Shown piece by piece: positions 94-19,779 of a stretch of DNA of 20,341 bases; position 1 is the first letter of the stretch, and every line of letters starts with the position of its first letter. The stretch lies in assembly GCA_965369655.1 (NCBI GenBank), contig CBDUQR010000047.1, positions 1-20,341 of the forward strand, in the 5' to 3' direction. The notes below the pieces were generated by a model. It was given only the letters and a program-made list of their open reading frames with translations, did no database searches and was not told where the DNA came from. The translations under genes and the position numbers were made by a program. Source of the stretch: an uncultured bacterium (GTDB taxonomy: Bacteria > Zixibacteria > MSB-5A5 > JAABVY01 > JAHJOQ01).

Positions 94-1407
94 TCAATGA
101 TAGACCACGTTGCCATCCGTCCTGGCAAGTGGTGGCATCAGTATGGCTTCATTTCTCGCAGGACCGGTGGAGATCAGAGCGATCTTCACCCCCGTGAACT
201 CCTCGATGAAATCGATATACTCGCGCGCCCTTGCAGGCAGCTCCTGAATGTTGGTCATACCGGAAGTTGGCTGCATCCACCCTTTGAAACTCATGTAGAC
301 AGGCTTGACGTTGCTGAGATCATAGAAGGTCAGCCTCTCGTTGTCCTCGATCCCGCTTTCGACCTTGTACTCGGTGCATACTTTGATTTCGGGAAATTCA
401 TCGAGCACATCGAGCTTGGTCAGGGCGAGGAAATCTATACCGTTTATGTCGACGGAACGTTTCAACAATTTCAGGTCGAGCCAGCCGCATCGTCTCGGCC
501 TGCCGGTCGTAGCGCCGAACTCATTGCCGCGCTCCGCCATCATCCTGCCGGCGTCGTCGGTCAGTTCGGTCGGGAACGGACCTGAGCCGACACGGGTTGT
601 GTATGCTTTCACGATTCCGTAAGTCTCATCGATATATCCGGGGGGCACGCCGAGCCCTGTCATAATTCCGCCGATCGTCGTGTTCGACGATGTGACATAC
701 GGGAAGGTACCGAAATCGATGTCGAGGAGAGTCCCCTGCGCGCCCTCGAAGAGCATAGATTTGCCGTCGCGGTATGCATCATGCATGAGTTGGCTCGCGT
801 CGACCGCCATGCCGAACAGGCGCTCTCCATACTGTAGAAGCTGTTCGTGAAGCGCCGAGATGTCGGATAGTTCCTCAGATGAAAACTCGCTGATAACGCT
901 GGCCTTGATCCTGAAATTGACTTCCAGTTTCTCTTTGAGTCTCTCTGGGAAAAACAGATCGAACACGCGGATGCCGAACCGCGAGTATTTATCTGTGTAC
1001 GCCGGCCCGATGCCTCTGAGAGTCGTGCCGATCTTCGAGGCACCGCGTCCTCTTTCGTTGAGTTGCTCGGTCCATTTGTGATACGGCAGAACGAGATGAG
1101 CCAGCCCCGAGACGAACAGTCTGCCGTCTGTAACTATACCCTCGCTATTGAGCTGGTCGATCTCTGAGAAGAATTGCTCTATATCGAGGACAACGCCGTT
1201 GCCGATCAGGCAAGTGCATTCCGGGTGGAGTATCCCCGACGGGATCAGATGGAGCACAGATTTCTTGTCACCGATGATGACCGTGTGTCCCGCGTTCGCG
1301 CCTCCCTGACATCGTGCTACTATGTCCGAGGTCTCCGACAGAATGTCTACGACCTTGCCTTTGCCCTCATCTCCCCATTGCGTTCCAATGACTACTCGAT
1401 TCGGCAT
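94..1407 (-). CDS. purA: Adenylosuccinate synthetase
   Basis: 437 aa ORF with N-terminal GTQWGDEGKGK, QGGANAGHT, GIGPAY, EGAQG, TFPYVTSS and GATTGRPRRCGW motifs; GGAGG RBS just upstream. Confidence 0.98.
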   Translation of the reverse strand: MPNRVVIGTQWGDEGKGKVVDILSETSDIVARCQGGANAGHTVIIGDKKSVLHLIPSGILHPECTCLIGNGVVLDIEQFFSEIDQLNSEGIVTDGRLFVSGLAHLVLPYHKWTEQLNERGRGASKIGTTLRGIGPAYTDKYSRFGIRVFDLFFPERLKEKLEVNFRIKASVISEFSSEELSDISALHEQLLQYGERLFGMAVDASQLMHDAYRDGKSMLFEGAQGTLLDIDFGTFPYVTSSNTTIGGIMTGLGVPPGYIDETYGIVKAYTTRVGSGPFPTELTDDAGRMMAERGNEFGATTGRPRRCGWLDLKLLKRSVDINGIDFLALTKLDVLDEFPEIKVCTEYKVESGIEDNERLTFYDLSNVKPVYMSFKGWMQPTSGMTNIQELPARAREYIDFIEEFTGVKIALISTGPARNEAILMPPLARTDGNVVYH

Positions 1408-1422
1408 TGTTCCTCCCGAATA

Positions 1423-2007
1423 CTATTGAATCTGAGAATCTATCCAGTGCAACAACTCTTTTTTTCCAAGTCCGGTTCTGGCTGAAAACATGAGCGGTTC
1501 GGTGCCTGTTGTCAGCACAAGCTCTTTCTTTGCTGTCGAAATGCTCTTCGCGATATCATTCCTCGAAAGCTTATCGGCCTTGGTGAGCACGACCAAATAC
1601 TCGATACTGCTCTCGTTGAGCCAGTCATTCAGTTCCTGATCAAGAGGCGTAGGCGGATGACGACTGTCGACCAGATGCACCACGCCCCTGAGCATGTCGT
1701 TATCAGTCAGATACGATTCGATCAGTTGACCCCACTGTTCCCTTATCGATTTCGACACCTTCGCGTAGCCGAATCCGGGGAGATCCACGAGCATCAGATT
1801 CACGTTGGTCATGAAGAAATTGACAGCCCTGGTTTTTCCCGGCGTCTGCGAGACTTTAGCTACATTTTTCATACCGACCAACTGGTTGAGCAGCGATGAT
1901 TTTCCTACGTTTGATCGACCGGCAAACGCTATCTGTGGGTATTGTTCATCTCTGAAATCGTTTGAATTGACAACGGAATAGAGGTACTTGCAGCTATTTA
2001 TTCGCAT
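1423..2007 (-). CDS. engB: Ribosome biogenesis GTP-binding protein EngB/YihA/YsxC
   Basis: G1 GRSNVGKSS, G2 TPGKT, G3 DLPGFG, G4 TKAD; usual position downstream of lon. Start placed at ATG 2007 (MRINSC), overlapping the lon stop; the ORF track extends to 2019. Confidence 0.95.
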   Translation of the reverse strand: MRINSCKYLYSVVNSNDFRDEQYPQIAFAGRSNVGKSSLLNQLVGMKNVAKVSQTPGKTRAVNFFMTNVNLMLVDLPGFGYAKVSKSIREQWGQLIESYLTDNDMLRGVVHLVDSRHPPTPLDQELNDWLNESSIEYLVVLTKADKLSRNDIAKSISTAKKELVLTTGTEPLMFSARTGLGKKELLHWIDSQIQ

Positions 2008-4360
2008 CACGACGGCCATTCTTGCCGAATACGATCCTGAGAACTTCCGATGCAGTTCGCACCTTGTGCAAAGTCAGTCCCTTGAGAAGCTTCTCCGGAA
2101 GTTCCTTGATATCTTTCTCATTCTTCCTCGGGCAGATTATTTCATAGATACCGGCTCTCTTTGCGGCGATGAATTTCTCGTTGAGACCTCCCACGGGAAG
2201 GACGTCTCCCTTGAGAGTAATCTCGCCGCTCATTGCGATATCTGTCCTGACCGGCTTTCCAGAGAATGCAGACACGAGCGCGGTTAGAAGCGCGATGCCA
2301 CCCGATGGTCCATCCTTCGGCACGGCGCCCTCGGGAATATGCACATGCACATCGGTATCTTTATAGAAATCGCTCTTCAGGTTGAGCATTTTCGCATTGC
2401 TTCTGATGTATGAGAGGGCGGCTTTGGCCGATTCCTTCATCACATCGCCGAGTTTTCCCGTCAGGATCAGCTTGGATGATCCATCCATGAGCGAGACTTC
2501 AATCGGAAGTATCTCGCCCCCGAACGAGGTCCAGGCCAGCCCGATCGACCTGCCGACGATCGGCTTCTTGCCGACTTCGAGACCGCTGTATTTCGGCATG
2601 CCGAGCATTCTTGTCAGTTCACGTTTGTTCACGACATATTTTTTCTTCCTGCGCGACTGGATATGGTGTTGGGCGATCTTGCGGAGTATCGAGGCCAACT
2701 GCCGCTCCAGTTCGCGAACGCCTGACTCCCGCGTGTAGTCCCGGACGATCGTGGCGATGATGGCCCTGTCGATAGTTATCTCGATTGCCACCATGCCCAT
2801 CTCGAACTTCAGCTTGGGAATCAAATAGCGTCGGGCAATCTCGACCTTCTCGAATTCGAGGTATCCCGGAAGATGGATCACTTCCATCCTGTCGAGCAGA
2901 GCAGGAGGTATTCCGTCCAGAGTATTTGCCGTAGTCAGGAAAAGCACACTCGAGAGATCGTACTCGACTTCGAGAAAATGATCTACAAATGTGCTGTTCT
3001 GCTCAGGATCGAGCACTTCGAGCAGAGCTGCCGCCGGATCACCCCTGAAATCCATTCCGATCTTGTCGACCTCGTCGAGAAGAAACACCGAGTTGGAGGA
3101 ACCGGCTTTTTTGATAGACTGAATGATACGCCCCGGAATAGATCCTATGTACGTTCTGCGATGTCCTCGGATCTCGGCTTCGTCGCGGACGCCACCGAGC
3201 GACATCCGAACGAACTTGCGATCGAGCGCATTGGCTATCGATCTGCCGACCGACGTCTTTCCCACGCCCGGCGGTCCGACTAAACAAAGGATCGGACCCT
3301 TTGCCTTCGCGGTCAGTTGCAGCACCGCAAGCTGTTCAACAATCCGTTTTTTTGGTTTTTCCAGACCGTAGTGATCGCTATCGAGAATCTTCTGTACTTT
3401 CTTGAAATCCTTTCTGTCCTTCGTCATAACACCCCATGGCATTCCGAGCAGCCAGTCGAGATATGTCCGGACTACGGTCGCCTCTGCGGAAAAGGGGTGC
3501 ATTTTTCTAAGCCGCTCGATTTCCTCGGTAGCTTTTTCTGATGCCTGCTCCGAGAGTTTGATCTTCTTCAGCTTCTTCTCGTACTCGTTTGCTTCCGCCT
3601 GATTGTCATCCGCCTGACCGAGTTCCTCTTTGATCGCTCGCAGTTGGTGCTGCAGGTAGAATTCGCGCTGGCTTTTCGAAAGAGATTCCCTGACCGTTCC
3701 GTCAATCCTCTCTTCAATCTTCAATATCTCGATTTCCGCCTTAAGCAAATCTGCTAAAAGACTCACATGAGTCCTCAGGGTGCTGACTTCAAGAAGCTTC
3801 TGCTTGATGCTCACTTTCAGAAGAGCATGCGCACTGATGGTATCAGCCAGCCTCTGATGATCCTCGATATTCGACAGATACAGCAGGACTTCATCGGGTA
3901 TCCTGCGGTTGAGCTTAACATACTCCTCGAATCGGGACAGCATCAACCTCGACATCGCCTCGACTTGAGTCTCTTCCTTGCTGAACGACGGCTTGTACGG
4001 TTCGTTTTTTACCGAGGCGAAACCATCCGACTCAACATACTTCAGCAGTTTCGACCGGATCAACCCCTCGACCAGCACCTTCAGCATTCCATTCGGGAGT
4101 TTCATAACCTGAAGGATCCGCGCTACGGTCCCGACCCGATAAAGATCCTTCTCTTGCGGCTCTTCCACAGACGGACGTTTCTGAGTGGCGAGGAAAACAA
4201 TCTTTTCCTTAACCATCGCCTCCTGAAGCGCGTCGATTGAAAACTCCCTGCCGAGAAGCAGCGGGTAAACCATGTATGGAAATATGACCACGTCCCGCAG
4301 CGGCAGGAGCGGCAGGAGTTTGGGAATCTCGATGTATTCCGAGTTATGTCTAATACGCAT
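1994..4360 (-). CDS. lon: ATP-dependent Lon protease (LonA type)
   Basis: 788 aa; N-domain LPLLPLRDVVIFP, Walker A GPPGVGKTS, RGHRRTYIG, Walker B LLDEVDK, catalytic Ser in PKDGPSGG and Lys in VGGLNEK. Confidence 0.98.
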   Translation of the reverse strand: MRIRHNSEYIEIPKLLPLLPLRDVVIFPYMVYPLLLGREFSIDALQEAMVKEKIVFLATQKRPSVEEPQEKDLYRVGTVARILQVMKLPNGMLKVLVEGLIRSKLLKYVESDGFASVKNEPYKPSFSKEETQVEAMSRLMLSRFEEYVKLNRRIPDEVLLYLSNIEDHQRLADTISAHALLKVSIKQKLLEVSTLRTHVSLLADLLKAEIEILKIEERIDGTVRESLSKSQREFYLQHQLRAIKEELGQADDNQAEANEYEKKLKKIKLSEQASEKATEEIERLRKMHPFSAEATVVRTYLDWLLGMPWGVMTKDRKDFKKVQKILDSDHYGLEKPKKRIVEQLAVLQLTAKAKGPILCLVGPPGVGKTSVGRSIANALDRKFVRMSLGGVRDEAEIRGHRRTYIGSIPGRIIQSIKKAGSSNSVFLLDEVDKIGMDFRGDPAAALLEVLDPEQNSTFVDHFLEVEYDLSSVLFLTTANTLDGIPPALLDRMEVIHLPGYLEFEKVEIARRYLIPKLKFEMGMVAIEITIDRAIIATIVRDYTRESGVRELERQLASILRKIAQHHIQSRRKKKYVVNKRELTRMLGMPKYSGLEVGKKPIVGRSIGLAWTSFGGEILPIEVSLMDGSSKLILTGKLGDVMKESAKAALSYIRSNAKMLNLKSDFYKDTDVHVHIPEGAVPKDGPSGGIALLTALVSAFSGKPVRTDIAMSGEITLKGDVLPVGGLNEKFIAAKRAGIYEIICPRKNEKDIKELPEKLLKGLTLHKVRTASEVLRIVFGKNGRRDANK

Positions 4361-4367
4361 GCTTTTT

Positions 4368-5612
4368 CTATGCGCTCTTGCGGCGCTGCTTCCTGGTTTC
4401 GATGATGGGAGGCTTATTCTCGGTCACTACTTCGGTGGTAATTATGCACTTCACAACCCCCTTGCGCGACGGGATATCGTACATCATGTCCAGCATCGCC
4501 TCTTCAAGGATCGAGCGCAGAGCACGCGCGCCGGTCTTTCGTTTCTCGGCCAGTTTAACAATCTCGTCCAGAGCTTCCGGAGTGAATTCGAGTTCGATTT
4601 TCTCCATATCAAACAGCTTCATATACTGCCGAGTCAATGCGTTCTTCGGCTCGGTCAAAATCCTGAGCAGCGCATCGGCAGACAACTCGTGAAGCGCTGT
4701 TACCACCGGCAGGCGTCCGACAAGTTCCGGTATGAGACCGTATTGAAGGAGATCGTCCGGCTCGGTCATATCCAGTATTTCACCTATGCTCTTGCCTGAA
4801 AGATTAGTCGATGACGCGTTGAATCCAAGTTGCTGTTTTCCAGCCCTGCGAGCTACTATTTTTTCCAGTCCATCGAATGCGCCGCCGCAGATGAAAAGTA
4901 TATTGCCGGTATCCATCTGTATGTACGACTGCTCCGGGTGCTTTCGCCCACCCTTTGGGGGAACCGAAGCTATGGTCCCTTCGAGAATTTTCAGCAGCGC
5001 CTGTTGCACGCCCTCGCCAGAGACGTCGCGGGTAATCGACGGATTCGCATCCCTGCGGGAAATCTTGTCGATCTCATCTATGTATATGATTCCCTGTTCA
5101 GCCTGCTGTAGATTGTAGTCCGCAGCCTGCAAGAGACGGACGAGTATATTTTCGACGTCTTCTCCGACATACCCAGCTTCGGTCAACACCGTGGCATCGG
5201 CGATAGTAAACGGCACCGAGAGCATCCTGGCGAGCGTGCGCGCCATCAGCGTCTTGCCGGTACCCGTCGGTCCAACGAGCAGAATGTTACTCTTCTCGAT
5301 CTCGACATGTTCTGCATCGGACGGGTTGAGAACGCGCTTGTAATGGTTGTAGACGGCGACCGATATCGTCTTCTTGGCGTGCTCTTGTCCGATGACATAC
5401 TGATCTAAAAATTCCTTGATCTCGACCGGTTTCGGAAGCTTGAACGATTTGCCTCTGGTCAGCTTGCGCTGTTCTGCATCGAGGACGTCGGTGCATAGCT
5501 TGATGCACTCATCACAGACAAATGCATTGTAACCCGAGAAAAGCCTCTGAACACTCTTCGCAGGCTTCCCGCAGAAATTACAGCGTTTCTCTTCGTTGTT
5601 TGTTTGAGTCAT
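4368..5612 (-). CDS. clpX: ATP-dependent Clp protease ATP-binding subunit ClpX
   Basis: C4 zinc-binding domain (CNFC...CDEC), Walker [13 protein letters not shown] pore loop, [19 protein letters not shown] loop. Start placed at ATG 5612 (MTQTNN); the ORF track extends to 5666. Confidence 0.97.
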
Positions 5613-5690
5613 TGTTTCACTCACAAAAAACTGGGCAGACCGTCCATCGGTCAGCCCAGTAGTCATAAATATGCGTTCAGAATGCCGGAA

Positions 5691-6275
5691 TCAAGCCTTT
5701 TTTTCGAAAACTTCGTCGATCAGACCATAAGCTTTGGACTCTTCCGGAGACATCCAGAAGTTTCGATCGGTATCGGCCTCGATTTTCTCGATAGGCTGCC
5801 CGGTATGTTTTGACAGAATCTTATTTAGTGCGTCCTTAAGTTTTCTCATCTCCTTCGTCTGTATTTCGATGTCGGAGACCTGTCCCTGCGTGCCCCCAAG
5901 CGGTTGATGCATCATGATCCTGGCATGCGGGAGAGCTGAACGCTTCCCTTTGGCCCCTGCTGCCAGGAGAAGTGCGCCCATGCTGGCGGCAAGTCCCATG
6001 CATGTAGTGGCGACATCCGCCTTGATAAACTGCATCGTGTCATAGATCGCCATTCCAGAGGTCACATGGCCGCCGGGAGTGTTGATGTAGACGTTTATGT
6101 CCTTCTCAGGATCTTCCGCTTCGAGAAACAGCATTTGCGCAATAACAAGATTGGCGATAGTGTCGTCGATAGGGGTTCCTATGAAAATAATCCTGTCCTT
6201 CAGGAGACGGGAATAGATATCATACGCCCGCTCGCCTCTGCCTGACTGCTCGACAACAATTGGTACTAACGTCAT
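5691..6275 (-). CDS. clpP: ATP-dependent Clp protease proteolytic subunit ClpP
   Basis: 194 aa; [27 protein letters not shown] (catalytic Ser), MMHQP (His), DRN (Asp). Confidence 0.98.
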
Positions 6276-6299
6276 CGGAATCCTTTCCCTTCTAACTGC

Positions 6300-7568
6300 C
6301 TATTCTTCAACGATTTCAGAGCCGTCAAGGATATGGCTCATCACCTTGGCTTCCAGCACAGTCTCCCTGACTTCCCGCACCTTGCCGCTCTTTTCGAGAG
6401 CTGCCTTAGCTTCCTCCATATTCATATTGTAGCTATCGGCAAAACCCTCAATCCACTTATCCACATCTTGCGTTTCGGCCTTGATTCCCTCCTGCTTTGC
6501 GATTTCATGCATCAGCAGGTCCCAGCGTATCATCCTGATAGCCAGCGCGCGATAGTTATCTCTCACCTCGGCTTCATCGAAATCGTCTTCCTTATGCCTC
6601 TCGTGAAAATCGGCCACGATGTCGTCAAGATAGTTTTCGATAAGCGACTGAGGTAACTCGAACTGATTGTGCGTAATTGTCGACTTGATAGCCTGATCGC
6701 GAAGCCCCTCCTGTATCTCCCTCCTGCGTCGTGTTTCAAGATCCAGACGTATCTTCGCCTTGAGTTCATCGACCGACTTGACATCCTCTCCAAACTTCTC
6801 GAAGAACTCATCGTTGAATTCCGGCGCAACCTTTGTCTTTACGGCGGTCACTTTGATCGAGTAACCGAGCTTCGCGTTGGAGAGGGATTTTTCCGGATAA
6901 TCGGCAGGATACTCTACGGTGATATCCTTCTCGTCACCCGCCCGTACACCGACGAGGTTATCGACAAATGCCGGCAATGCGGCATCTCTGGAAAGCTCTA
7001 TCACGAAATCCTTGAACTCGTCTTTCTTCAGACGATTCTCCGGATCAGATATCTTTTTCATATCCACGGTGACGAAATCGCCTTCCTTCGCCGGGTCCTC
7101 GGAGACCTCGATAGATGACTGCATATAGAGGATCGCCTTGTAAGCCTCTTCCACATTGTCATCAGTAATCACTTCCGATTTTTTCGTGAACGTGAAACCG
7201 CTCGTCTTCTCCAGCTTGATTTCCGGAGCGACCTCGATGGAGGCAGTGAATTTGATCGGTTCATCGTCTCTGTAATCTACCTCGGACAATACCGGCAGAG
7301 ATATCGGGTCAATTTTTGCATCCTTTATCACTTCCTGGAATGCATCCTGAATCAACTGTTCACCCACATCCGCTCGAGCCTCTTTGCCGAATCGGGACTT
7401 GATGACCGACATCGGCACCTTGCCGGGACGAAACCCCGGAACCTTTGCCTCTTTCTTGAGCATCCGGAAGACTTCGTCGAACTTCGCGGCGACTTTCTCC
7501 TTAGGAATCTCGATATTAAATACGCGCTTGCAGTTCGCCTCTTTATTCATCGCATAGGTGTAATCCAA
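6300..7568 (-). CDS. tig: Trigger factor
   Basis: 422 aa; ribosome-binding signature VPGFRPGKVP, FKBP-like middle domain; TTG start with GGGAGG RBS; canonical position upstream of clpP-clpX. Confidence 0.95.
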   Translation of the reverse strand: MDYTYAMNKEANCKRVFNIEIPKEKVAAKFDEVFRMLKKEAKVPGFRPGKVPMSVIKSRFGKEARADVGEQLIQDAFQEVIKDAKIDPISLPVLSEVDYRDDEPIKFTASIEVAPEIKLEKTSGFTFTKKSEVITDDNVEEAYKAILYMQSSIEVSEDPAKEGDFVTVDMKKISDPENRLKKDEFKDFVIELSRDAALPAFVDNLVGVRAGDEKDITVEYPADYPEKSLSNAKLGYSIKVTAVKTKVAPEFNDEFFEKFGEDVKSVDELKAKIRLDLETRRRREIQEGLRDQAIKSTITHNQFELPQSLIENYLDDIVADFHERHKEDDFDEAEVRDNYRALAIRMIRWDLLMHEIAKQEGIKAETQDVDKWIEGFADSYNMNMEEAKAALEKSGKVREVRETVLEAKVMSHILDGSEIVEE

Positions 7569-7584
7569 AACGCCTCCCGTATTA

Positions 7585-7669
7585 TGGTGCGAAAGAGGGG
7601 ACTCGAACCCCTATGGCCAAGGCCACTGGATCCTAAATCCAGCGCGTATACCAGTTCCGCCACTTTCGC
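7585..7669 (-). tRNA. tRNA-Leu (anticodon TAG)
   Basis: Reverse complement GCGAAAGTGGCGGAACTGGTATACGCGCTGGATTTAGGATCCAGTGGCCTTGGCCATAGGGGTTCGAGTCCCCTCTTTCGCACCA: acceptor stem GCGAAAG/CTTTCGC, anticodon arm CTGGA-TTTAGGA-TCCAG, long variable arm, GGTTCGAGTCC T-arm, encoded CCA. Confidence 0.97.
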
Positions 7670-7837
7670 ACTGAAGTATTCCGCCTGCAATTCAACCAGC
7701 CATTCGGCTGATGGTTCCTCCAGTACATCAAGCCGCTTGAGTCAGCATCTCTCGCGGCGCATCCTTTACGGCTACTCATCTGTCAGTGCTGTCATCTGAA
7801 AAAAACAGTCACCGAGGCGAGTCCCCGCGAATCGGAG

Positions 7838-7867
7838 ATAATATCGCCAATTTAACCTTCAAGTCAA
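7838..7867 (-). promoter_or_regulatory. Putative sigma70-type promoter for the tRNA-Leu-tig-clpPX-lon run
   Basis: Minus strand TTGACT (7867-7862), 18 nt spacer, TATTAT (7843-7838). Confidence 0.5.
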
Positions 7868-7871
7868 GTCC

Positions 7872-8276
7872 CTACGTCGTTCGCAGTGAGACTCGGAACG
7901 TAAAAGGTCCCCCCCCCTTCTTCTTGTCTGAGGGACGAGGGGATCCTGAGGGACCGGACATCTCACGCCTCCATGTTCGCCAACGATAAAGATGATGTGA
8001 ATATAACCCTTCCCGGCGCAACAGTAACGCTATTTCACTGCTGTCACTGCAGAGAGCAGCCTCCTGTCCCTCAGGATCGGGATCAGCGACCGAGAGTATG
8101 CGCAGCTTGTAATCGATCGAAAAACTCCGTCGCCTTGCTACCGGGGCAACCTCCGCATCCACGGCACGACCTGCCAGCGAGCTATCGGTATTGAGCCTGA
8201 GGTCCGCTCCACTACGTTCGCTACGCTCTCTTCGTTCCGCTGACCTCTCACTTGGTTCGGCTACCTGCTCAAACAT
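7872..8276 (-). pseudogene. IS3-family transposase OrfA (HTH) remnant with a 27-nt in-frame insertion
   Basis: RRRSFSIDYKLRIL...EIALLLRREGLYSHHLYRWR matches the OrfA HTH pattern (RRxFxxEYKxRIL...LLRREGLYSSxLxxWR); C-terminal coiled coil and orfB absent. Confidence 0.75.
8067..8093. repeat. 27-nt micro-insertion unit, family 1, copy A (in-frame in orfA)
   Basis: TCCCTCAGGATCGGGATCAGCGACCGA; near-identical copy TCCCTCGGGGATCGGGATCAGCGACCGA at 16517-16544; encodes SVADPDPEG on the minus strand. Confidence 0.85.
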
Positions 8277-9003: not shown

Positions 9004-11442
9004 CTACACTCCACCCGGATACTCTTTCATGATACTCGCGAATTCTGTAAGGTGGTCGTCTACCATACGGTTGATCGTGCCTTCCGGATACGTGCCGTCA
9101 TCCTGTCTCTCTCCCGCAGGCACACCCGTGAGAAGCTCGATACCCTGATCGATTGTCTCAATCGGATAGATATGGAATGTACCGTTCTCCACAGCGTCGA
9201 CAACCTCCGGTTTCAGCATCAGGTCGGACACATTCTGATGCGGTATCATCACTCCCTGGTTCCCGGTCAGCCCCCTGCTTTCACAGACATCGAAGAACCC
9301 CTCGATCTTCTCGTTGGCGCCACCAATCGGCTGAATCTCACCCCTCTGATTGACCGACCCGGTCACCGCAGTATCCTGGCGGATCGGTTGATTGGAGAGC
9401 GAAGAAAGCAGAGCATAAACCTCGGTCGATGATGCCGAATCGCCATCCACGCCGCCATACGATTGCTCGAAACAGATCGACGCAGACACTGCTAACGGTT
9501 TGTTTCGAGCATACCTGCTGCGGAGCAGTCCGGAGAGAATCAGCACGCCCTTGTTGTGTATGGGACCGGAAAGTTCAGCCTCTCTCTCGATATTGATGAC
9601 TCCGCCCTTGCCGACAGCCACCGTCGTCGTCAGTCGCGTCGGTTTTCCGAATGCGTACTGCCCGAGGTCATACACGGAGAGACCGTTGATCTGGCCGACA
9701 ACGGATTCATCAGTATCGATCATTATCGAACCTTCCTCGATCATCTCGCTGAGTTTGTCCTCGGGAAGGTTCATCCGTTTCTTCCAGTTCTCGATCGCTG
9801 TCCTGACATGTTCGTATGTGACAACATCGGCGCCGCTCTTGCCCGCCCAGTAGTCGGCTTCCCTGAGAAGATCGGAGATGAGATTGAACCGCGTTGTCAG
9901 CTTGTTGCGACGACCCGCCTTGCGAACGCCGTACTCCAGCACCCCGGCGATCCCCGTTCCATCGAACTCGCGAAGCCCGTCGCGGTTGCATATCTTCGAG
10001 ATGAATCTCACATACTCATCCGTAGCAGTATCGGACCGATTCATCTCGTGATCGAACTGAGCCAGAATCTTGAATATCTTCTTGAAATCCTCATCCGCGA
10101 AGAACAGCAGATTGTACATCTGGTGATCGCCGATCATCAGGACTTTTACATCGATCTCTACCGGCTGAGGCTTGAGAGCTGACGATGTGAGCATGTAGAA
10201 CGGATCGTAGTTCTGGATTTCGACCTTCCTGTTCCGAAGAGCGCGCTTGAGCGCAGGCCAAACACCCGGCTCGATCAGCGCGTCCATCGCATTGATCACG
10301 AGAAACCCGCCGGATGCCTTCAGGAGCGAACCCGCCTTTATCTTCGTGAAATCAGCCCGGTACGACCGCAGACCCTCCTGCTCACGTTCGATAGTCCCGA
10401 ACAGGTTGCGATATGAAGGATTGATTTCGATCACGATCGGCGGCTTCCTGGTTTTCGAATTGTCCACAAGGACATTGACTCGATACTTGAGGAACGGGTC
10501 GGCTTCGCGCTTGCCATGTGAGGGTGATTCGTCGGACCCCTTGTTGCCCGATTTCTCCTTCGTGAACAGAGAGATATTCTTCAGAACATCATCTGCGACC
10601 TCATCCAGATAGATGTGCAGATCCTCTGAGTCGAACTCCGACTTCACATACGCGACGAGTCCGTTCACAATCGGCTCGGTTCTCTTCTTTTCGAGCACCT
10701 GCAGCGTTTCCTCGAGCTTGGCTACGACATCGCGATTCTCCTTGAATACCTCGTGCAGACGGCTCTCCAGTTCTGCGTACTTCGCCTCGAACTGCTTGAG
10801 CTTCTCCTCGGGGACCTTCCCCTCACGAACGAGAACCTCGAGCTCATCGAACGACATTGGCTTGTCGTCAACCACTGGATGAAGATCCGGTTTCACGTAC
10901 GGGCCGATCTGTACCTGCACCAGCGCAAAGCTGTGCTCAGCGATTTCCGCCTCGAATGCCTGCAGTATTTCCTTCTGCTCTGTCTGGAAACTTCGGACTA
11001 TGTTCTTCCTGTGTTCCTGGTACTTGTCAGACTCGAAGAGATTGGTCAGATTCTGCACCAGGTCATTGACGAGGCGATCCATACTTTTTTTGAATTTGCA
11101 GCCATTGCCCGCAAGAAGAGCAAGCGAGCGAGGCTGATCCTCATCCCTGAAATTGTGGAGGTAGACAATGTCGGGCGGCGGGCTGTCGCCGCTTACGATT
11201 TCTTCGAGCAGGTGCTTGACAGTAGTCGTTCTCCCCGTTCCGGCCATGCCGGAGATGAAAATATTGTAGCCTTCACGCTTTACCTCGAGGCCGAGCCTGA
11301 TGGCCTCGACAGCTCTATCCTGGCCGATGATGACATCCGCAGGTTCCACGTCCCTGCTGGATTTCCATTTTAGCGAACTCGGATCGCATCTCCAGCGCAA
11401 CTGTTCTGCTGTGAGTTCTTTCACCTTATTTGAAGCTGACAT
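9004..11442 (-). CDS. Lon-like protease, LonC/LonB-type (AAA-like domain plus Lon_C), 812 aa
   Basis: IIGQDRAVEA, Walker A-like GMAGTGRTT, NLFGTIE, GSLLKASGGFL, protease domain FEQSYGGVDGDSAS (Ser) and IGGANEKIEGF (Lys); ATG 11442 with GGGAGG RBS. Confidence 0.93.
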   Translation of the reverse strand: MSASNKVKELTAEQLRWRCDPSSLKWKSSRDVEPADVIIGQDRAVEAIRLGLEVKREGYNIFISGMAGTGRTTTVKHLLEEIVSGDSPPPDIVYLHNFRDEDQPRSLALLAGNGCKFKKSMDRLVNDLVQNLTNLFESDKYQEHRKNIVRSFQTEQKEILQAFEAEIAEHSFALVQVQIGPYVKPDLHPVVDDKPMSFDELEVLVREGKVPEEKLKQFEAKYAELESRLHEVFKENRDVVAKLEETLQVLEKKRTEPIVNGLVAYVKSEFDSEDLHIYLDEVADDVLKNISLFTKEKSGNKGSDESPSHGKREADPFLKYRVNVLVDNSKTRKPPIVIEINPSYRNLFGTIEREQEGLRSYRADFTKIKAGSLLKASGGFLVINAMDALIEPGVWPALKRALRNRKVEIQNYDPFYMLTSSALKPQPVEIDVKVLMIGDHQMYNLLFFADEDFKKIFKILAQFDHEMNRSDTATDEYVRFISKICNRDGLREFDGTGIAGVLEYGVRKAGRRNKLTTRFNLISDLLREADYWAGKSGADVVTYEHVRTAIENWKKRMNLPEDKLSEMIEEGSIMIDTDESVVGQINGLSVYDLGQYAFGKPTRLTTTVAVGKGGVINIEREAELSGPIHNKGVLILSGLLRSRYARNKPLAVSASICFEQSYGGVDGDSASSTEVYALLSSLSNQPIRQDTAVTGSVNQRGEIQPIGGANEKIEGFFDVCESRGLTGNQGVMIPHQNVSDLMLKPEVVDAVENGTFHIYPIETIDQGIELLTGVPAGERQDDGTYPEGTINRMVDDHLTEFASIMKEYPGGV

Positions 11443-11530
11443 ATTTTCCTCCCATGGAATGACCCAGATTCTCCGGTAAATAAGTCGTTCTTCTACAATA
11501 TGCAAACCTTTTGTACAATGCAGAGGTCCG

Positions 11531-11713
11531 ATGAACACGGAAAGGCGCGGGGGAGATGGGTCTTCGTAGGACAGAACCCCCTTCAGCGGTTCTGCCGGAG
11601 CATTCTGGAAAGAGATGACCGAGGGATTCCTCAATAAGCAGCGCGAGATGATGGCGAAGGTTGTCGGCGAGAGTGATCAGGTCTCGGTGGCAGCGCAGCG
11701 GGGACAGGACTGA
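11531..11713 (+). pseudogene. Disrupted 5' fragment of an unidentified gene fused to the aspA remnant
   Basis: AGAGG RBS + ATG 11531, candidate TTCTAC-N17-TACAAT promoter at 11491-11519; in-frame TAG at 11567; frame continues protein-like (FWKEMTEGFLNKQREMMAKVVG) and runs out of frame into the lyase remnant. Confidence 0.35.
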
Positions 11714-16454: not shown

Positions 16455-16633
16455 GGCAGTCTCAAAAGCCCTATTCTCCAGTAGGTCGGAGTTCCGCAGC
16501 AAGCGAAGCTTGCAAGTCCCTCGGGGATCGGGATCAGCGACCGAAAACCCGACTCCTGTGCAACAAGATAAAGGTGTCACGTTTCTTACCCTCGTACCTC
16601 GGGTTCGGAACACGACCTACTTTTGGGACAGCC
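16455..16633. repeat. MITE-like unit: 14-bp terminal inverted repeats enclosing an inverted REP doublet
   Basis: GGCAGTCTCAAAAG (16455-16468) and CTTTTGGGACAGCC (16620-16633), 12/14 complementary; inside are GTAGGTCG hairpins at 16481-16553 (+, containing the family-1 insertion 16517-16544) and 16620-16576 (-). Confidence 0.7.
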
Positions 16634-16700: not shown

Positions 16701-16885
16701 AGTATATTCACGAATAACATACGCCCAGAATACGTTTGACAATGTACATAGCAGACCTGTCGAAACTACCTTTTCGGACAGCCGCAATAGTCTTATAACG
16801 CCTGAATTTCACGAATCTGGCATCGGTGGCCGCTCACTCTGTCTGTGAGCATTGCAAAAAGTGATACTCGAAACCCGAAATTTGC

Positions 16886-16914
16886 TTGAACCGCGTTGCG
16901 GTTTGGAGTATCTT
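16886..16914 (+). promoter_or_regulatory. Putative uvrA promoter with overlapping palindrome AACCGC-N3-GCGGTT
   Basis: TTGAAC (16886-16891), 17 nt spacer, TATCTT (16909-16914); perfect inverted repeat at 16889-16903. Confidence 0.5.
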
Positions 16915-16944
16915 TCCGGGTTCACGTATTCGATGGAGACAGAT

Positions 16945-19779
16945 GTGACAGGCGACGGCGAAATTATCATCAAGGGTGCGCGCGAGCACAATCTCAAGAA
17001 CATCGATGTAGCCATTCCCCGGAACAAGTTGGTGGTAATCACCGGACTGTCCGGCTCAGGCAAATCCTCGCTGGCGTTCGATACGATCTATGCCGAGGGG
17101 CAGAGGAGATATGTAGAATCGCTCTCGGCATACGCGAGACAATTCCTCGGCCTGATGGAGAAGCCGGATGTCGATTTTATCGACGGACTTTCCCCAGCCA
17201 TATCGATAGAACAGCGCAGTTCAGCAAAGAATCCTCGCTCGACCGTCGGAACTGTGACGGAGATATACGACTATCTCCGGCTGCTTTTCGCTCGTATCGG
17301 CATTCCGCACTGTTTCAACTGCGGTGATCGCATCACGCAGCAGACATCATCGCAGATCGTGGATGCCGTGATGGCGCTTCCATTGAAGACAAGAATCCAG
17401 GTGCTTGCTCCGCTCGTTCGAGGCAGGAAAGGCGAGCACAGGGATGTACTCGATGAAGTGGTCAAAGAAGGGTTCGTTCGCGTGAGGATCGACGGCGAGG
17501 TCTACAGCACCGACGATATTCCTCCGCTCGAAAAGAAAAAGAAGCACTCGATCGAAATTGTGGTCGATCGGCTCATACGGACTGAGAAGGTTGCCAAACG
17601 GCTCGCCGACTCGATAGAGACCGCGCTGAAGCTATCGTCCGGAGTGGTTGCCATCGCCGCGACCGGTCAGAAAGAGATGATATTCTCCGAGAAGTATGCG
17701 TGTGTCAAGTGCGGCATTTCGTTCGAGGAGATGTCTCCGCGGATGTTTTCGTTCAATTCGCCGTTCGGCGCCTGTGCGGTGTGCGGTGGGCTTGGAAACA
17801 AGATGGAAATCGATCCGACGCTTGTGATACCGAATGAAAGCTTGAGCATCAGCGATGGCGCCATTCACCCGTGGGGTTCGGATATTTCCAACTGGAACAG
17901 GTTCCAGCTTCGGGGGCTTGCTGATCATTTCGGATTCAAGTTCGGCACCAAATGGAAGCTGCTTCCCGAGAAAATACGCAAGATAGTGCTGTACGGGTCC
18001 GGCAGGACAGAAATCAACTTCAAGTACGAACATACCAGCGGCAGGGGCAAAGGGGAATATGTCGGTCGATTCGAGGGGGTGATACCGAATCTCGAACGCC
18101 GCTACAAGCAGACCGAATCGCCCGGGATCAGATCATGGATAGAGCAATACATGTCGATCAAACCGTGCCCTCTGTGCGAAGGCGCAAGATTGCGGCGCGA
18201 GTCGCTGGCGGTCGTGGTTCACAGGAAGGGCATACATGACGTGACACGGATGTCGATCAAAGAAGCGAAGCAGTTCTTCGAAGAGTTGAAACCTACCAGG
18301 CGTGAGGCATTGATTGCCAGTCAGATTCTGAAAGAACTGCGGGAGAGGCTCGGCTTTCTGTCGAATGTTGGCCTCGATTACCTTACGCTCGACAGGGCGG
18401 CATCGACTCTCTCCGGCGGCGAAGCTCAGCGAATCAGACTTGCTACGCAGATCGGTTCGAGGCTCGTCGGCGTGCTCTACATCCTCGACGAACCATCGAT
18501 CGGACTGCATCAGAGAGACAACAAGATGCTTCTGGCGACTCTGACTGAATTGCGCGACCTCGGCAACACTGTGATAGTGGTCGAGCATGACAGGGAGACT
18601 ATCGAGAGCGCCGATTATGTCATCGATCTCGGCCCTGCGGCGGGCAAGAATGGCGGGGAGATAGTTGCGCAGGGAACGCCTGAACAGATCAAGCGTTCGG
18701 ATAAGTCGCTGACCGGCAAGTATCTGTCGTTGAAGATGTCGATCCCGGTACCGAGCGGCAGGATGAAAGGCAACGGGATGAAGCTCAGGCTGATCGGCGC
18801 ATCCGGGAACAACCTCAAGAATATCGATGTGTCGATTCCCCTCGGGACGTTCACGTGTGTCACCGGCGTATCGGGTTCTGGTAAATCGACCCTGATAAAT
18901 GAGACGCTGTATCCAGCTCTCGCCCGGCTTTTTTTCGGGTCGCGCCGTCCGCCTCTGCCGTACAAGAAGCTCGGTGGTGTTGAATACATCGATAAGGTGA
19001 TCGACATCGATCAATCACCCATCGGCAGGACTCCCAGATCGAATCCGGCGACCTATACCGGAACATTCACTCATATCCGTGATCTATTTGCGCAGCTTCC
19101 CGAGTCGAGAATTCGGGGTTACAAGCCCGGCAGGTTTTCGTTTAATGTTAAGGGTGGCAGATGCGAGGCTTGCCAGGGTGACGGCATAATCAAGATAGAG
19201 ATGCATTTTCTTCCCGATGTCTATGTGCCGTGCGAGGTCTGTAAGGGCAAAAGGTACAACCGCGAGACACTGGACATCACATATAAGGGCAAGAACATCG
19301 CTGACGTGCTCGACATGACGATCGACGAAGCGCTCGAATTCTTCAGCAGAATCCCCCGGCTGCAACGCAAGCTCATGACGCTGAAGCGCGTCGGACTCGG
19401 CTACATACATCTCGGACAGCAGGCGACAACTCTGTCCGGCGGCGAAGCCCAGCGCGTCAAGCTCTCATCCGAGCTTTCCAAAACCTCGACAGGCTCAACC
19501 CTGTACATTCTTGATGAACCGACGACCGGCCTGCACTTTGCGGACATCAAGATGCTCCTGACTGTGCTCAACGATCTGGTCAATCTCGGGAACACGGTAG
19601 TCGTGATCGAGCATAACCTCGATGTGATCAAAACGGCTGATTATATAATCGATCTCGGGCCGGAAGGGGGCGATGAAGGTGGTCGTGTTGTGGCAGTGGG
19701 TACGCCGGAAGAGGTAGCGAAAGACAAGTCATCCTATACCGGTCATTTCCTGAAGAAAGAGCTGGCGAAATCAACATAG
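16945..19779 (+). CDS. uvrA: Excinuclease ABC subunit A
   Basis: GAREHNLKN, two Walker A motifs ([18 protein letters not shown]), two LSGGEAQR signatures, CxxC zinc modules. GTG 16945 has a GGAG RBS; ATG 16933 is an alternative start. Confidence 0.98.

Follow-up and report, generated by a model that had tools for sequence, protein, structure and literature searches.

To our knowledge, there are hardly any records of mobile DNA shorter than about 50 nt, the small dispersed repeats (SDRs) of cyanobacteria having stood almost alone in this size range since 2008; SDR1-8 of Elhai et al. 2008 (Genome Res 18:1484) reportedly are short inverted repeats around a core, or hairpins. In the literature, the SDRs of Nostocaceae are described as very small, possibly mobile repeats (Elhai et al. 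2008, as cited in PMC3116915, PMC2884548, PMC5861425 and PMC4390886), among which SDR5 inserts between the third and fourth base of HIP1 (PMC4390886, PMC5861425), and no SDR has been reported outside Nostocaceae (PMC5861425). Repetitive extragenic palindromic (REP) sequences of 20-40 bp that lie inside genes, often those for replication and repair, add residues to the products (Di Nocera et al. 2013, PMC3733652), and the Rickettsia palindromic elements (RPEs), which are palindromic and about 150 bp long, add a conserved peptide in frame to unrelated proteins (PMC10969869). Here we analyze a family of micro-elements represented in a 20,341-nt contig of an uncultured bacterium assigned to Zixibacteria (CBDUQR010000047.1, our C47; hereafter the window, that is, the whole stretch of DNA that was analyzed). 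One copy, 27 nt in length (TCCCTCAGGATCGGGATCAGCGACCGA, 8067-8093, forward strand), lies in a remnant of an insertion sequence (IS) of the IS3 type, and a variant of 28 nt with one extra G (16517-16544, forward strand) lies in the 3' arm region of a REP tagged with GTAG. We consider it highly probable that this is a genuinely mobile micro-element that follows a target rule of the CCTG type.

The recurrence of the unit between unrelated flanks had been pointed out in an earlier note on this DNA, made from the sequence alone, and is well outside the range of chance: the 20-mer shared by the two copies is found twice in the window compared to an expectation of 0.01, and none of 100 shuffled sequences reached two. 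Are these two copies all there is? The note had named such an outcome as one that would speak against mobility, and what we find instead is a family of about 80 copies in the genome to which the window belongs, a metagenome-assembled genome (MAG) of 2.99 Mb in 100 contigs with 51.8% G+C and a completeness of 99.5% (G000). The 3' module of the element, GGGATCNGCGACCGA, has 83 matches genome-wide with at most one mismatch; two of these (C18:33762 and C3:69012) are unrelated sequences in which the rest of the element is absent and were discarded, and upstream of all others there is a 5' module, TCCCTC(A/G)G(1-3)ATC. Grouping of neighbouring modules yields 76 elements, which have 57 distinct flank pairs. 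In the short form the 5' module abuts the 3' module, giving 27 or 28 nt, and with 51 copies this is the commonest form, in keeping with the unit size given in the earlier note; what that size does not cover is the longer, modular forms, in which further conserved modules stand between the same two ends. These comprise a 39-nt form with four GGGATC units, forms of 51-55 nt, a form of 72/73 nt whose first 39 nt form a hairpin, and composites (46 to 105 nt) in which 5' modules or, at 88-105 nt, 33-nt 3' units are repeated. The short form folds no better than shuffled controls (z 0.09), the ends carry no terminal inverted repeats at the junctions seen, and the last four bases are constantly CCGA. 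Two 28-nt copies on one contig (C33:11173-11201 and C33:12256-12284), 1083 nt apart, have near-identical flanks, which suggests that a local duplication took the element with it.

The open reading frame (ORF) that hosts the copy at 8067-8093 (7872-8276, reverse strand; 134 aa, P0001) has no Pfam match of its own even at E 10, and its family was assigned through its 337 homologs, most of which carry PF01527, the helix-turn-helix domain of IS3-type OrfA proteins. In this frame the element reads antisense as SVADPDPEG, and exactly these nine residues are missing from all 17 aligned homologs, which were chosen from the top of the list. The homologs retain the junction, YKLRIL|(Q/E/K/S)E..., and the closest of them (79% identical) reads RILQEAD. 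Thus, the claim that the segment was added in frame, and that its removal gives the spacing expected of OrfA, is borne out, whereas the alternative that close homologs would all contain the segment is not what the alignment shows. The designation of this gene as an IS3 OrfA calls for a qualification: the type is right, the gene is not intact, being a truncated single-copy remnant next to a tRNA-Leu gene. It diverges from the homologs after WRREMS and ends early, and a tblastn search of the genome for a second copy, sought as an internal empty allele, found none. A run of nine C lies at about 7909-7917, where the frame leaves the homologs. The remnant also contains a partial unit of 24 nt (7930-7953, reverse strand; boundary read by eye), which consists of the 5' module, CCCTCG and a further TCCCTC, without the 3' module; this unit is sense with respect to OrfA, stands after CCGG and contributes about eight residues after WRREMS, and it is the sole copy in the genome that lacks the 3' module, barring one that is cut by a contig end. 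A contig of one sequencing run (X2) that covers window positions 7000-8164 shows 12 differing letters and lacks 27 letters at a position that is not displayed; if the missing letters are those of 8067-8093, a strain roughly 99% identical may have the empty allele.

Empty sites are also present in the REPs. The host REP in the window (16481-16553, forward strand) starts with GTAG, has an inner hairpin and holds the 28-nt insert directly 3' of the tetranucleotide CAAG (16513-16516, forward strand), which is part of the REP sequence; its partner in the doublet (16576-16620, reverse strand) has no insert. The stretch 16480-16625 folds as a REP doublet (z -4.2; none of 200 shuffled sequences folded as well), and in 31 of the 41 REP copies in the genome the site is empty, reading ...GCAAG^AAACCCGAC with nothing between, in full agreement with the proposal of the note that deletion of this insert restores the REP arm. 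Altogether, more than half of the element copies lie in hosts of the REP type, at the same position within each host family, and seven such positions are mostly empty (31/41, 17/23, 10/16, 25/39, 8/15, 20/22 and 50/54, the first being the 16517 site). According to the listings and folds, many of the host sites are located in hairpin loops or 0-3 nt 3' of a stem.

The evidence from orthologs is of the same kind and comes from unique sequence. All three of the unique-site copies that could be aligned across the site with a genome of the same genus (G001) face a base-exact gap of 27 nt in the latter: the copy in a DinG-like helicase (C10:7872-7898), the copy in the C-terminal tail of DnaK (C9:38766-38792) and a copy five codons into a small ORF (C19:6181-6207). 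Sites that could not be aligned were left out, namely C9:972, where the G001 match stops at the site and the locus ends there, and C17:52096 and C46:18516, where the matches of relatives stop short. Exact empty sites in orthologs and in REP paralogs alike accord with the suggestion, made from the window alone, of a mobile unit far smaller than a miniature inverted-repeat transposable element (MITE) that is able to add peptides to proteins.

Some of the REP sites show traces of other events, which hint at change that is recent or still going on. At C3:65511 and C41:15205, a REP site retains just the last 7 nt of the element (CGACCGA and CGACCAA, respectively), possible footprints of partial excision or internal deletion. 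In three cases (C17:52395-52483, C2:39226 and C9:73018-73115), the flanks are chimeric, or two sites of one REP doublet are bridged and the intervening stretch is missing: at C17:52395 the left half of one host is combined with the right half of another, and at C2:39226 site 1 of one host family (hostB) is joined to site 2. The micro-elements thus appear to act as recombination points.

What do the insertion sites have in common? We compared the 73 elements for which both flanks are available, collapsing them into 35 left-flank classes to discount host paralogs. Position -4 is C in 34 of the 35 classes (binomial p 3e-19), position -3 is C in 28, position -2 is T in 23 and position -1 is G in 22; CCTG is both the consensus and the commonest tetranucleotide (11/35). 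The right (3') flank contains almost no information, and no target duplication is present at any of the junctions seen. The element inserts in one orientation, directly 3' of a CCTG-like tetranucleotide, and the observation in the earlier note that both window copies follow a G and show no duplication, correct as far as it goes, was incomplete, the conserved feature being a tetranucleotide. This tetranucleotide belongs to the host rather than to the element, since it is present in empty paralogs and, at 8063-8066 (forward strand), CCTG is on the other strand the Q codon of the QEA that is conserved in the OrfA homologs. The empty sites in G001 carry related tetranucleotides such as CCAG and CTTC. 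Furthermore, the terminal CCGA of the element itself fits a C-C-N-N pattern; in several composites a second unit seems to have been set directly after CCGA or CTCG, and nested insertion at such sites could build the modular forms. Pairing between the flank TCCTG and an internal CAGGA, in the manner of a guide and its target, was considered as well and dropped, the listings showing no covariation of the target with the (A/G) variant.

The copies inside genes carry a signature of selection. For ORFs that are backed by Pfam, homologs or orthologs (three copies near ORF 5' ends were set aside as uncertain), the length of the element is a multiple of three in 13 of 13 cases (27, 72, 78 or 81 nt); the corresponding figure for all other locations, in which 28 and 73 nt predominate, is 22 of 59 (Fisher p 2e-5). 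The 13 include C2:39226, a probably non-coding copy in a REP that lies downstream of a truncated transposase gene, and without it the count is 12 of 12. Selection keeps within genes only copies whose length is divisible by three. IS genes (IS3, IS5/IS1182-like, IS256 and IS630), most of them visibly degenerate, account for about half of the coding copies. The orientation is also uneven: 11 of the 12 coding copies are antisense to the gene, the exception being a 72-nt copy, sense, in an IS630-type gene. This exceeds what the supply of targets would give, the target being only slightly commoner on template strands (0.58; p 0.014), and the sense frames of the 27-nt form are, by reading of the listings, open as well, so that tolerance alone is no obvious cause of the bias. 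The peptide added by the antisense 27-nt form, SVADPDPEG or one of its variants SVADPDLEG and PVADPDPKG, is acidic and proline-rich; that of the 72-nt form, SVADPVIDPDLLPPGSRGRGDPEG, has 24 residues. By local GC skew the top strand of the element lies on the strand richer in C than G in 52 cases compared to 29 on the other, a difference that is at most suggestive in a draft genome and among copies that are not independent of one another.

Outside this genome the family disappears abruptly. A 19-mer of the element, allowing one mismatch, has 52 matches in G000 and none for the reversed control, with no match in G001 (94% complete) or in four genomes of the same family, and, for two of the other 35 relatives, a single match each with one mismatch. 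When one genome from each of 185,579 species was scanned for exact matches, 76 loci with one match apiece and no multi-copy holder were returned; being single matches in unrelated, mostly high-G+C taxa, these are taken as chance. The metagenome scan gave 18 single-match loci with the 5' module beside none of them, and the 13 single matches of a 17-mer in viral contigs likewise resemble chance; the genome of the window itself may be missing from the species and metagenome scans. G001 does have the REP families in which the element resides (36 and 45 matches). Within the data searched the family is confined to one lineage, and it reached at least 35 distinct classes of sites after the split from the congener; it has spread through this genome recently.

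By what means could such a small unit move? As far as we know, a duplex of 27 nt cannot circularise, form a synapse or hold two transposase-binding ends, which leaves either cutting and joining of a single strand or templated synthesis. Elements of the IS200/IS605 group have a target tetranucleotide next to the left end and, as part of the right end, a defined last tetranucleotide; they insert in strict orientation, with neither a duplication nor inverted ends (PMC6006769). The anatomy of the micro-element matches this chemistry, on the strength of which we propose single-strand movement. An HUH tyrosine enzyme, acting in trans, would cut and rejoin the unit as single-stranded DNA, with the CCTG-like target flanking the left end and CCGA presumably belonging to the right end. 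The candidate enzymes would be the products of four genes for REP-associated tyrosine transposases (RAYTs), the only candidates found: Y1_Tnp (PF01797) has five matches in the genome, and four of the Y1 proteins (161-187 aa), encoded on contigs C31, C76, C37 and C9, score above the NCBIfam cut-off for the RAYT equivalog, whereas the model for IS200-type TnpA stays below its own cut-off for all four. TnpB, IS110, RVT_1 and Cas1 domains were not found in domain searches of this genome.

Two side observations concern these genes. The RAYT genes at C31:20707-21234 and C76:5227-5787 are 81% identical to each other and are flanked by the same type of REP (GTAG+CCCACCC); RAYTs are usually described as single-copy (PMC5581495). 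An open frame of 1072 aa contains, at about C23:20496-20732 (reverse strand; locus L031), an in-frame Y1 domain similar to that of RAYTs, bracketed by a repeated peptide, MGFQPMNHG.D..ATS, that resembles read-through REP hairpins; a transposase gene with REPs on both sides would thus have entered a large gene without breaking its frame.

Several findings weigh against this account or, more narrowly, against the movement of the element by a RAYT. Each of the four RAYT genes carries in its 300-nt flanks a different REP of its own and never the element. Y1 enzymes bind subterminal hairpins, 20-25 nt long, at both ends (PMC6006769), whereas the short form has no hairpin beyond chance and only the 73-nt form has a clear one, at the 5' end. 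Reading of the listings reveals no covariation between target tetranucleotides and element variants. RAYTs are present in relatives that lack the element, with 2 to 8 matches in each of five genomes (G001-G005); the two matches in G001 include a close counterpart (82% identity) of the RAYT on contig C9 but of none of the other three, which, G001 being fragmented, is weak evidence. In a MAG of 100 contigs, a mover would escape notice if its gene lay on a repeat or plasmid that was not assembled. Finally, one REP host site can carry forms of 27, 28, 46, 52, 73 or 90 nt, from which it follows that some copies may have been spread by their host REP or altered by conversion, without fresh insertion.

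Thus, the suggestion in the earlier note of an HUH/RAYT-type mover is left as a circumstantial case, in which the four RAYT genes and the Y1-like target pattern stand against the failure of any RAYT to be flanked by the element and the lack of a hairpin in the short form. By analogy with the known systems, an HUH enzyme of the RAYT type acting in trans may be the mover, a reading to which we give clearly less than even weight. The full account, in which a lineage-specific, ultra-small, non-autonomous family uses a CCTG-like target, is filtered by frame within genes and moves as a single strand by HUH chemistry, strikes us as evenly poised between right and wrong. The boldest version, namely that a hairpin-less strand of 27 nt is a complete transposable unit, moved in trans by a domesticated RAYT that uses CCTG and CCGA alone, is one that we would rather doubt than accept. 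Were it true, no transposon with a defined target rule would be smaller, there would be a first direct handle on the action of RAYTs on DNA other than their own REPs, and nested insertion at the CC-type sites of each copy would explain the longer modular forms.

Among the alternatives, the one that survives best is templated patch synthesis, whereby the unit would be copied into nicks after CCTG-like ends instead of being excised and pasted, either through template switching of a polymerase or through target-primed synthesis by an enzyme akin to a primase or a reverse transcriptase, with slippage and template jumps yielding the modular forms. This scheme has its attractions inasmuch as the forms (27/28, 39, 46, 51-55, 72/73 and 88-105 nt) look like alternative joins of a few modules, and the target resembles the 5' end of the element (CCTG or CCTC compared to TCCCTC), as if a primer end annealed to the template. 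However, the 99.5% complete genome has no RVT_1 domain, no candidate template locus or RNA was found (within the window, Rfam gives just a tRNA), and the constant 3' end CCGA and the strict orientation are at least equally well explained by cleavage, so that we regard templated synthesis as improbable.

Slightly less probable still is the view that the unit is a mere passenger that got into a few REP families on one or a few occasions and was multiplied along with them, the copies in genes having arisen through recombination or conversion instead of transposition of the unit itself. The residence of more than half of the copies at a fixed position in each REP-type host family is what this view predicts, and the chimeric flanks at C17:52395 and C2:39226 do show recombination at elements. 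It has difficulty, however, with at least 12 copies in unique coding sequence whose two flanks are free of host repeats and whose boundaries, compared to orthologs, are base-exact; the 35 left-flank classes have nothing in common except the tetranucleotide, and conversion would require flanking homology, of which there is none.

A conventional MITE, moved by the DDE transposase of a resident IS family, is a very remote prospect: several IS families are indeed present and many copies lie inside IS3, IS1182/IS5-like, IS256 and IS630 genes, but neither terminal inverted repeats nor target duplication are present at the junctions seen, 27 nt is too short for two transposase-binding ends, as is well established, and the element goes in with a fixed orientation, next to a target motif on one side only. 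That the copies arose as an artefact when the metagenome was assembled or binned, or are low-complexity matches due to chance, is hardly credible even for a MAG in 100 contigs with many copies near contig ends, given the copies within long contigs with unique flanks, the presence of the window stretch in contigs of three runs, the chance expectation of 0.01 per window, and the divisible-by-three filter in genes and the target rule, both of them biological signatures. The family is real and no artefact, and whatever probability the movers considered here leave over falls to a mechanism that nobody has yet thought of.

The remainder of the window is unremarkable in its gene content. A housekeeping cluster on the reverse strand (94-7568) comprises purA, an ORF of 198 aa, lon, clpX, an ORF of 194 aa and the gene for trigger factor. 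Among named proteins, the nearest homologs of the adenylosuccinate synthase encoded by purA (55-71% identity) carry the label Zixibacteria. The cluster is followed by the tRNA-Leu gene (7585-7669, reverse strand), which lies about 200 nt from the OrfA remnant and is the only match in an Rfam scan of the window. A second Lon-type protease, similar to LonB/LonC, is encoded at 9004-11634, and uvrA occupies 16852-19779. The sequencing runs that contain window DNA are labelled as marine sediment metagenomes, with no RNA run among those listed; the three runs whose contigs carry the window stretch come from one study, and one of them may be the source.

In our literature search, which covered subscription journals thinly and excluded supplements, we found no description of this element or any study of repeats in Zixibacteria. 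The element is among the smallest mobile DNA elements known, and what the present analysis adds is a very small mobile repeat from an uncultured phylum unrelated to cyanobacteria, with base-exact empty sites, a one-sided target and a selection filter in genes. With so few candidate enzymes, the mechanism is open to experiments that use oligonucleotides and purified RAYTs. For the host, such elements are a cheap route by which a bacterium acquires small surface loops or tails in proteins, DnaK and the DinG-like helicase being examples, and for genome annotation there is a warning in that 9-residue 'indels' common to unrelated proteins of one genome can be mobile DNA.

How, then, does the family compare with the systems described before? 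With REPs and REPINs it shares the status of a non-coding repeat of 20-40 nt in tens to hundreds of copies, some of them inside genes (PMC3733652, PMC3116915, for REPs), and the genome does encode RAYTs; unlike these, the element has no GTAG or CGTC tag, its short form has no palindrome and it flanks no RAYT gene; genuine GTAG REPs serve as its insertion sites, and it is not itself one of them. From MITEs it is set apart by the lack of terminal inverted repeats and target-site duplication. In-frame insertion into proteins is a trait shared with the RPEs, compared to which the element is about five times shorter and non-palindromic. The absence of duplication and of inverted ends, together with strict orientation 3' of a tetranucleotide, is as in IS200/IS605 elements such as IS608 and ISDra2; those, however, are about 0.7-2 kb long, encode TnpA and need subterminal hairpins at both ends, whereas the micro-element is 27 nt long and gene-less, with no hairpin in the short form and one at the 5' end only in the long form, and TnpB was not found in this genome. 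The closest precedents are the REPs that lie inside genes and the SDRs. We compare the SDRs by description only: like the present element they measure no more than about 20-27 nt, occur in many copies within a restricted lineage and enter other repeats and defined short sites with precision, and in both cases mobility is inferred from comparisons. The differences are that the present element comes from a Zixibacteria-like phylum, that its short form shows no significant fold, that its target is one-sided and of the CCTG type, and that it has longer modular relatives. The family, then, is neither a REP nor a MITE nor an RPE; it behaves like an SDR and bears an insertion signature like that of IS200/IS605.

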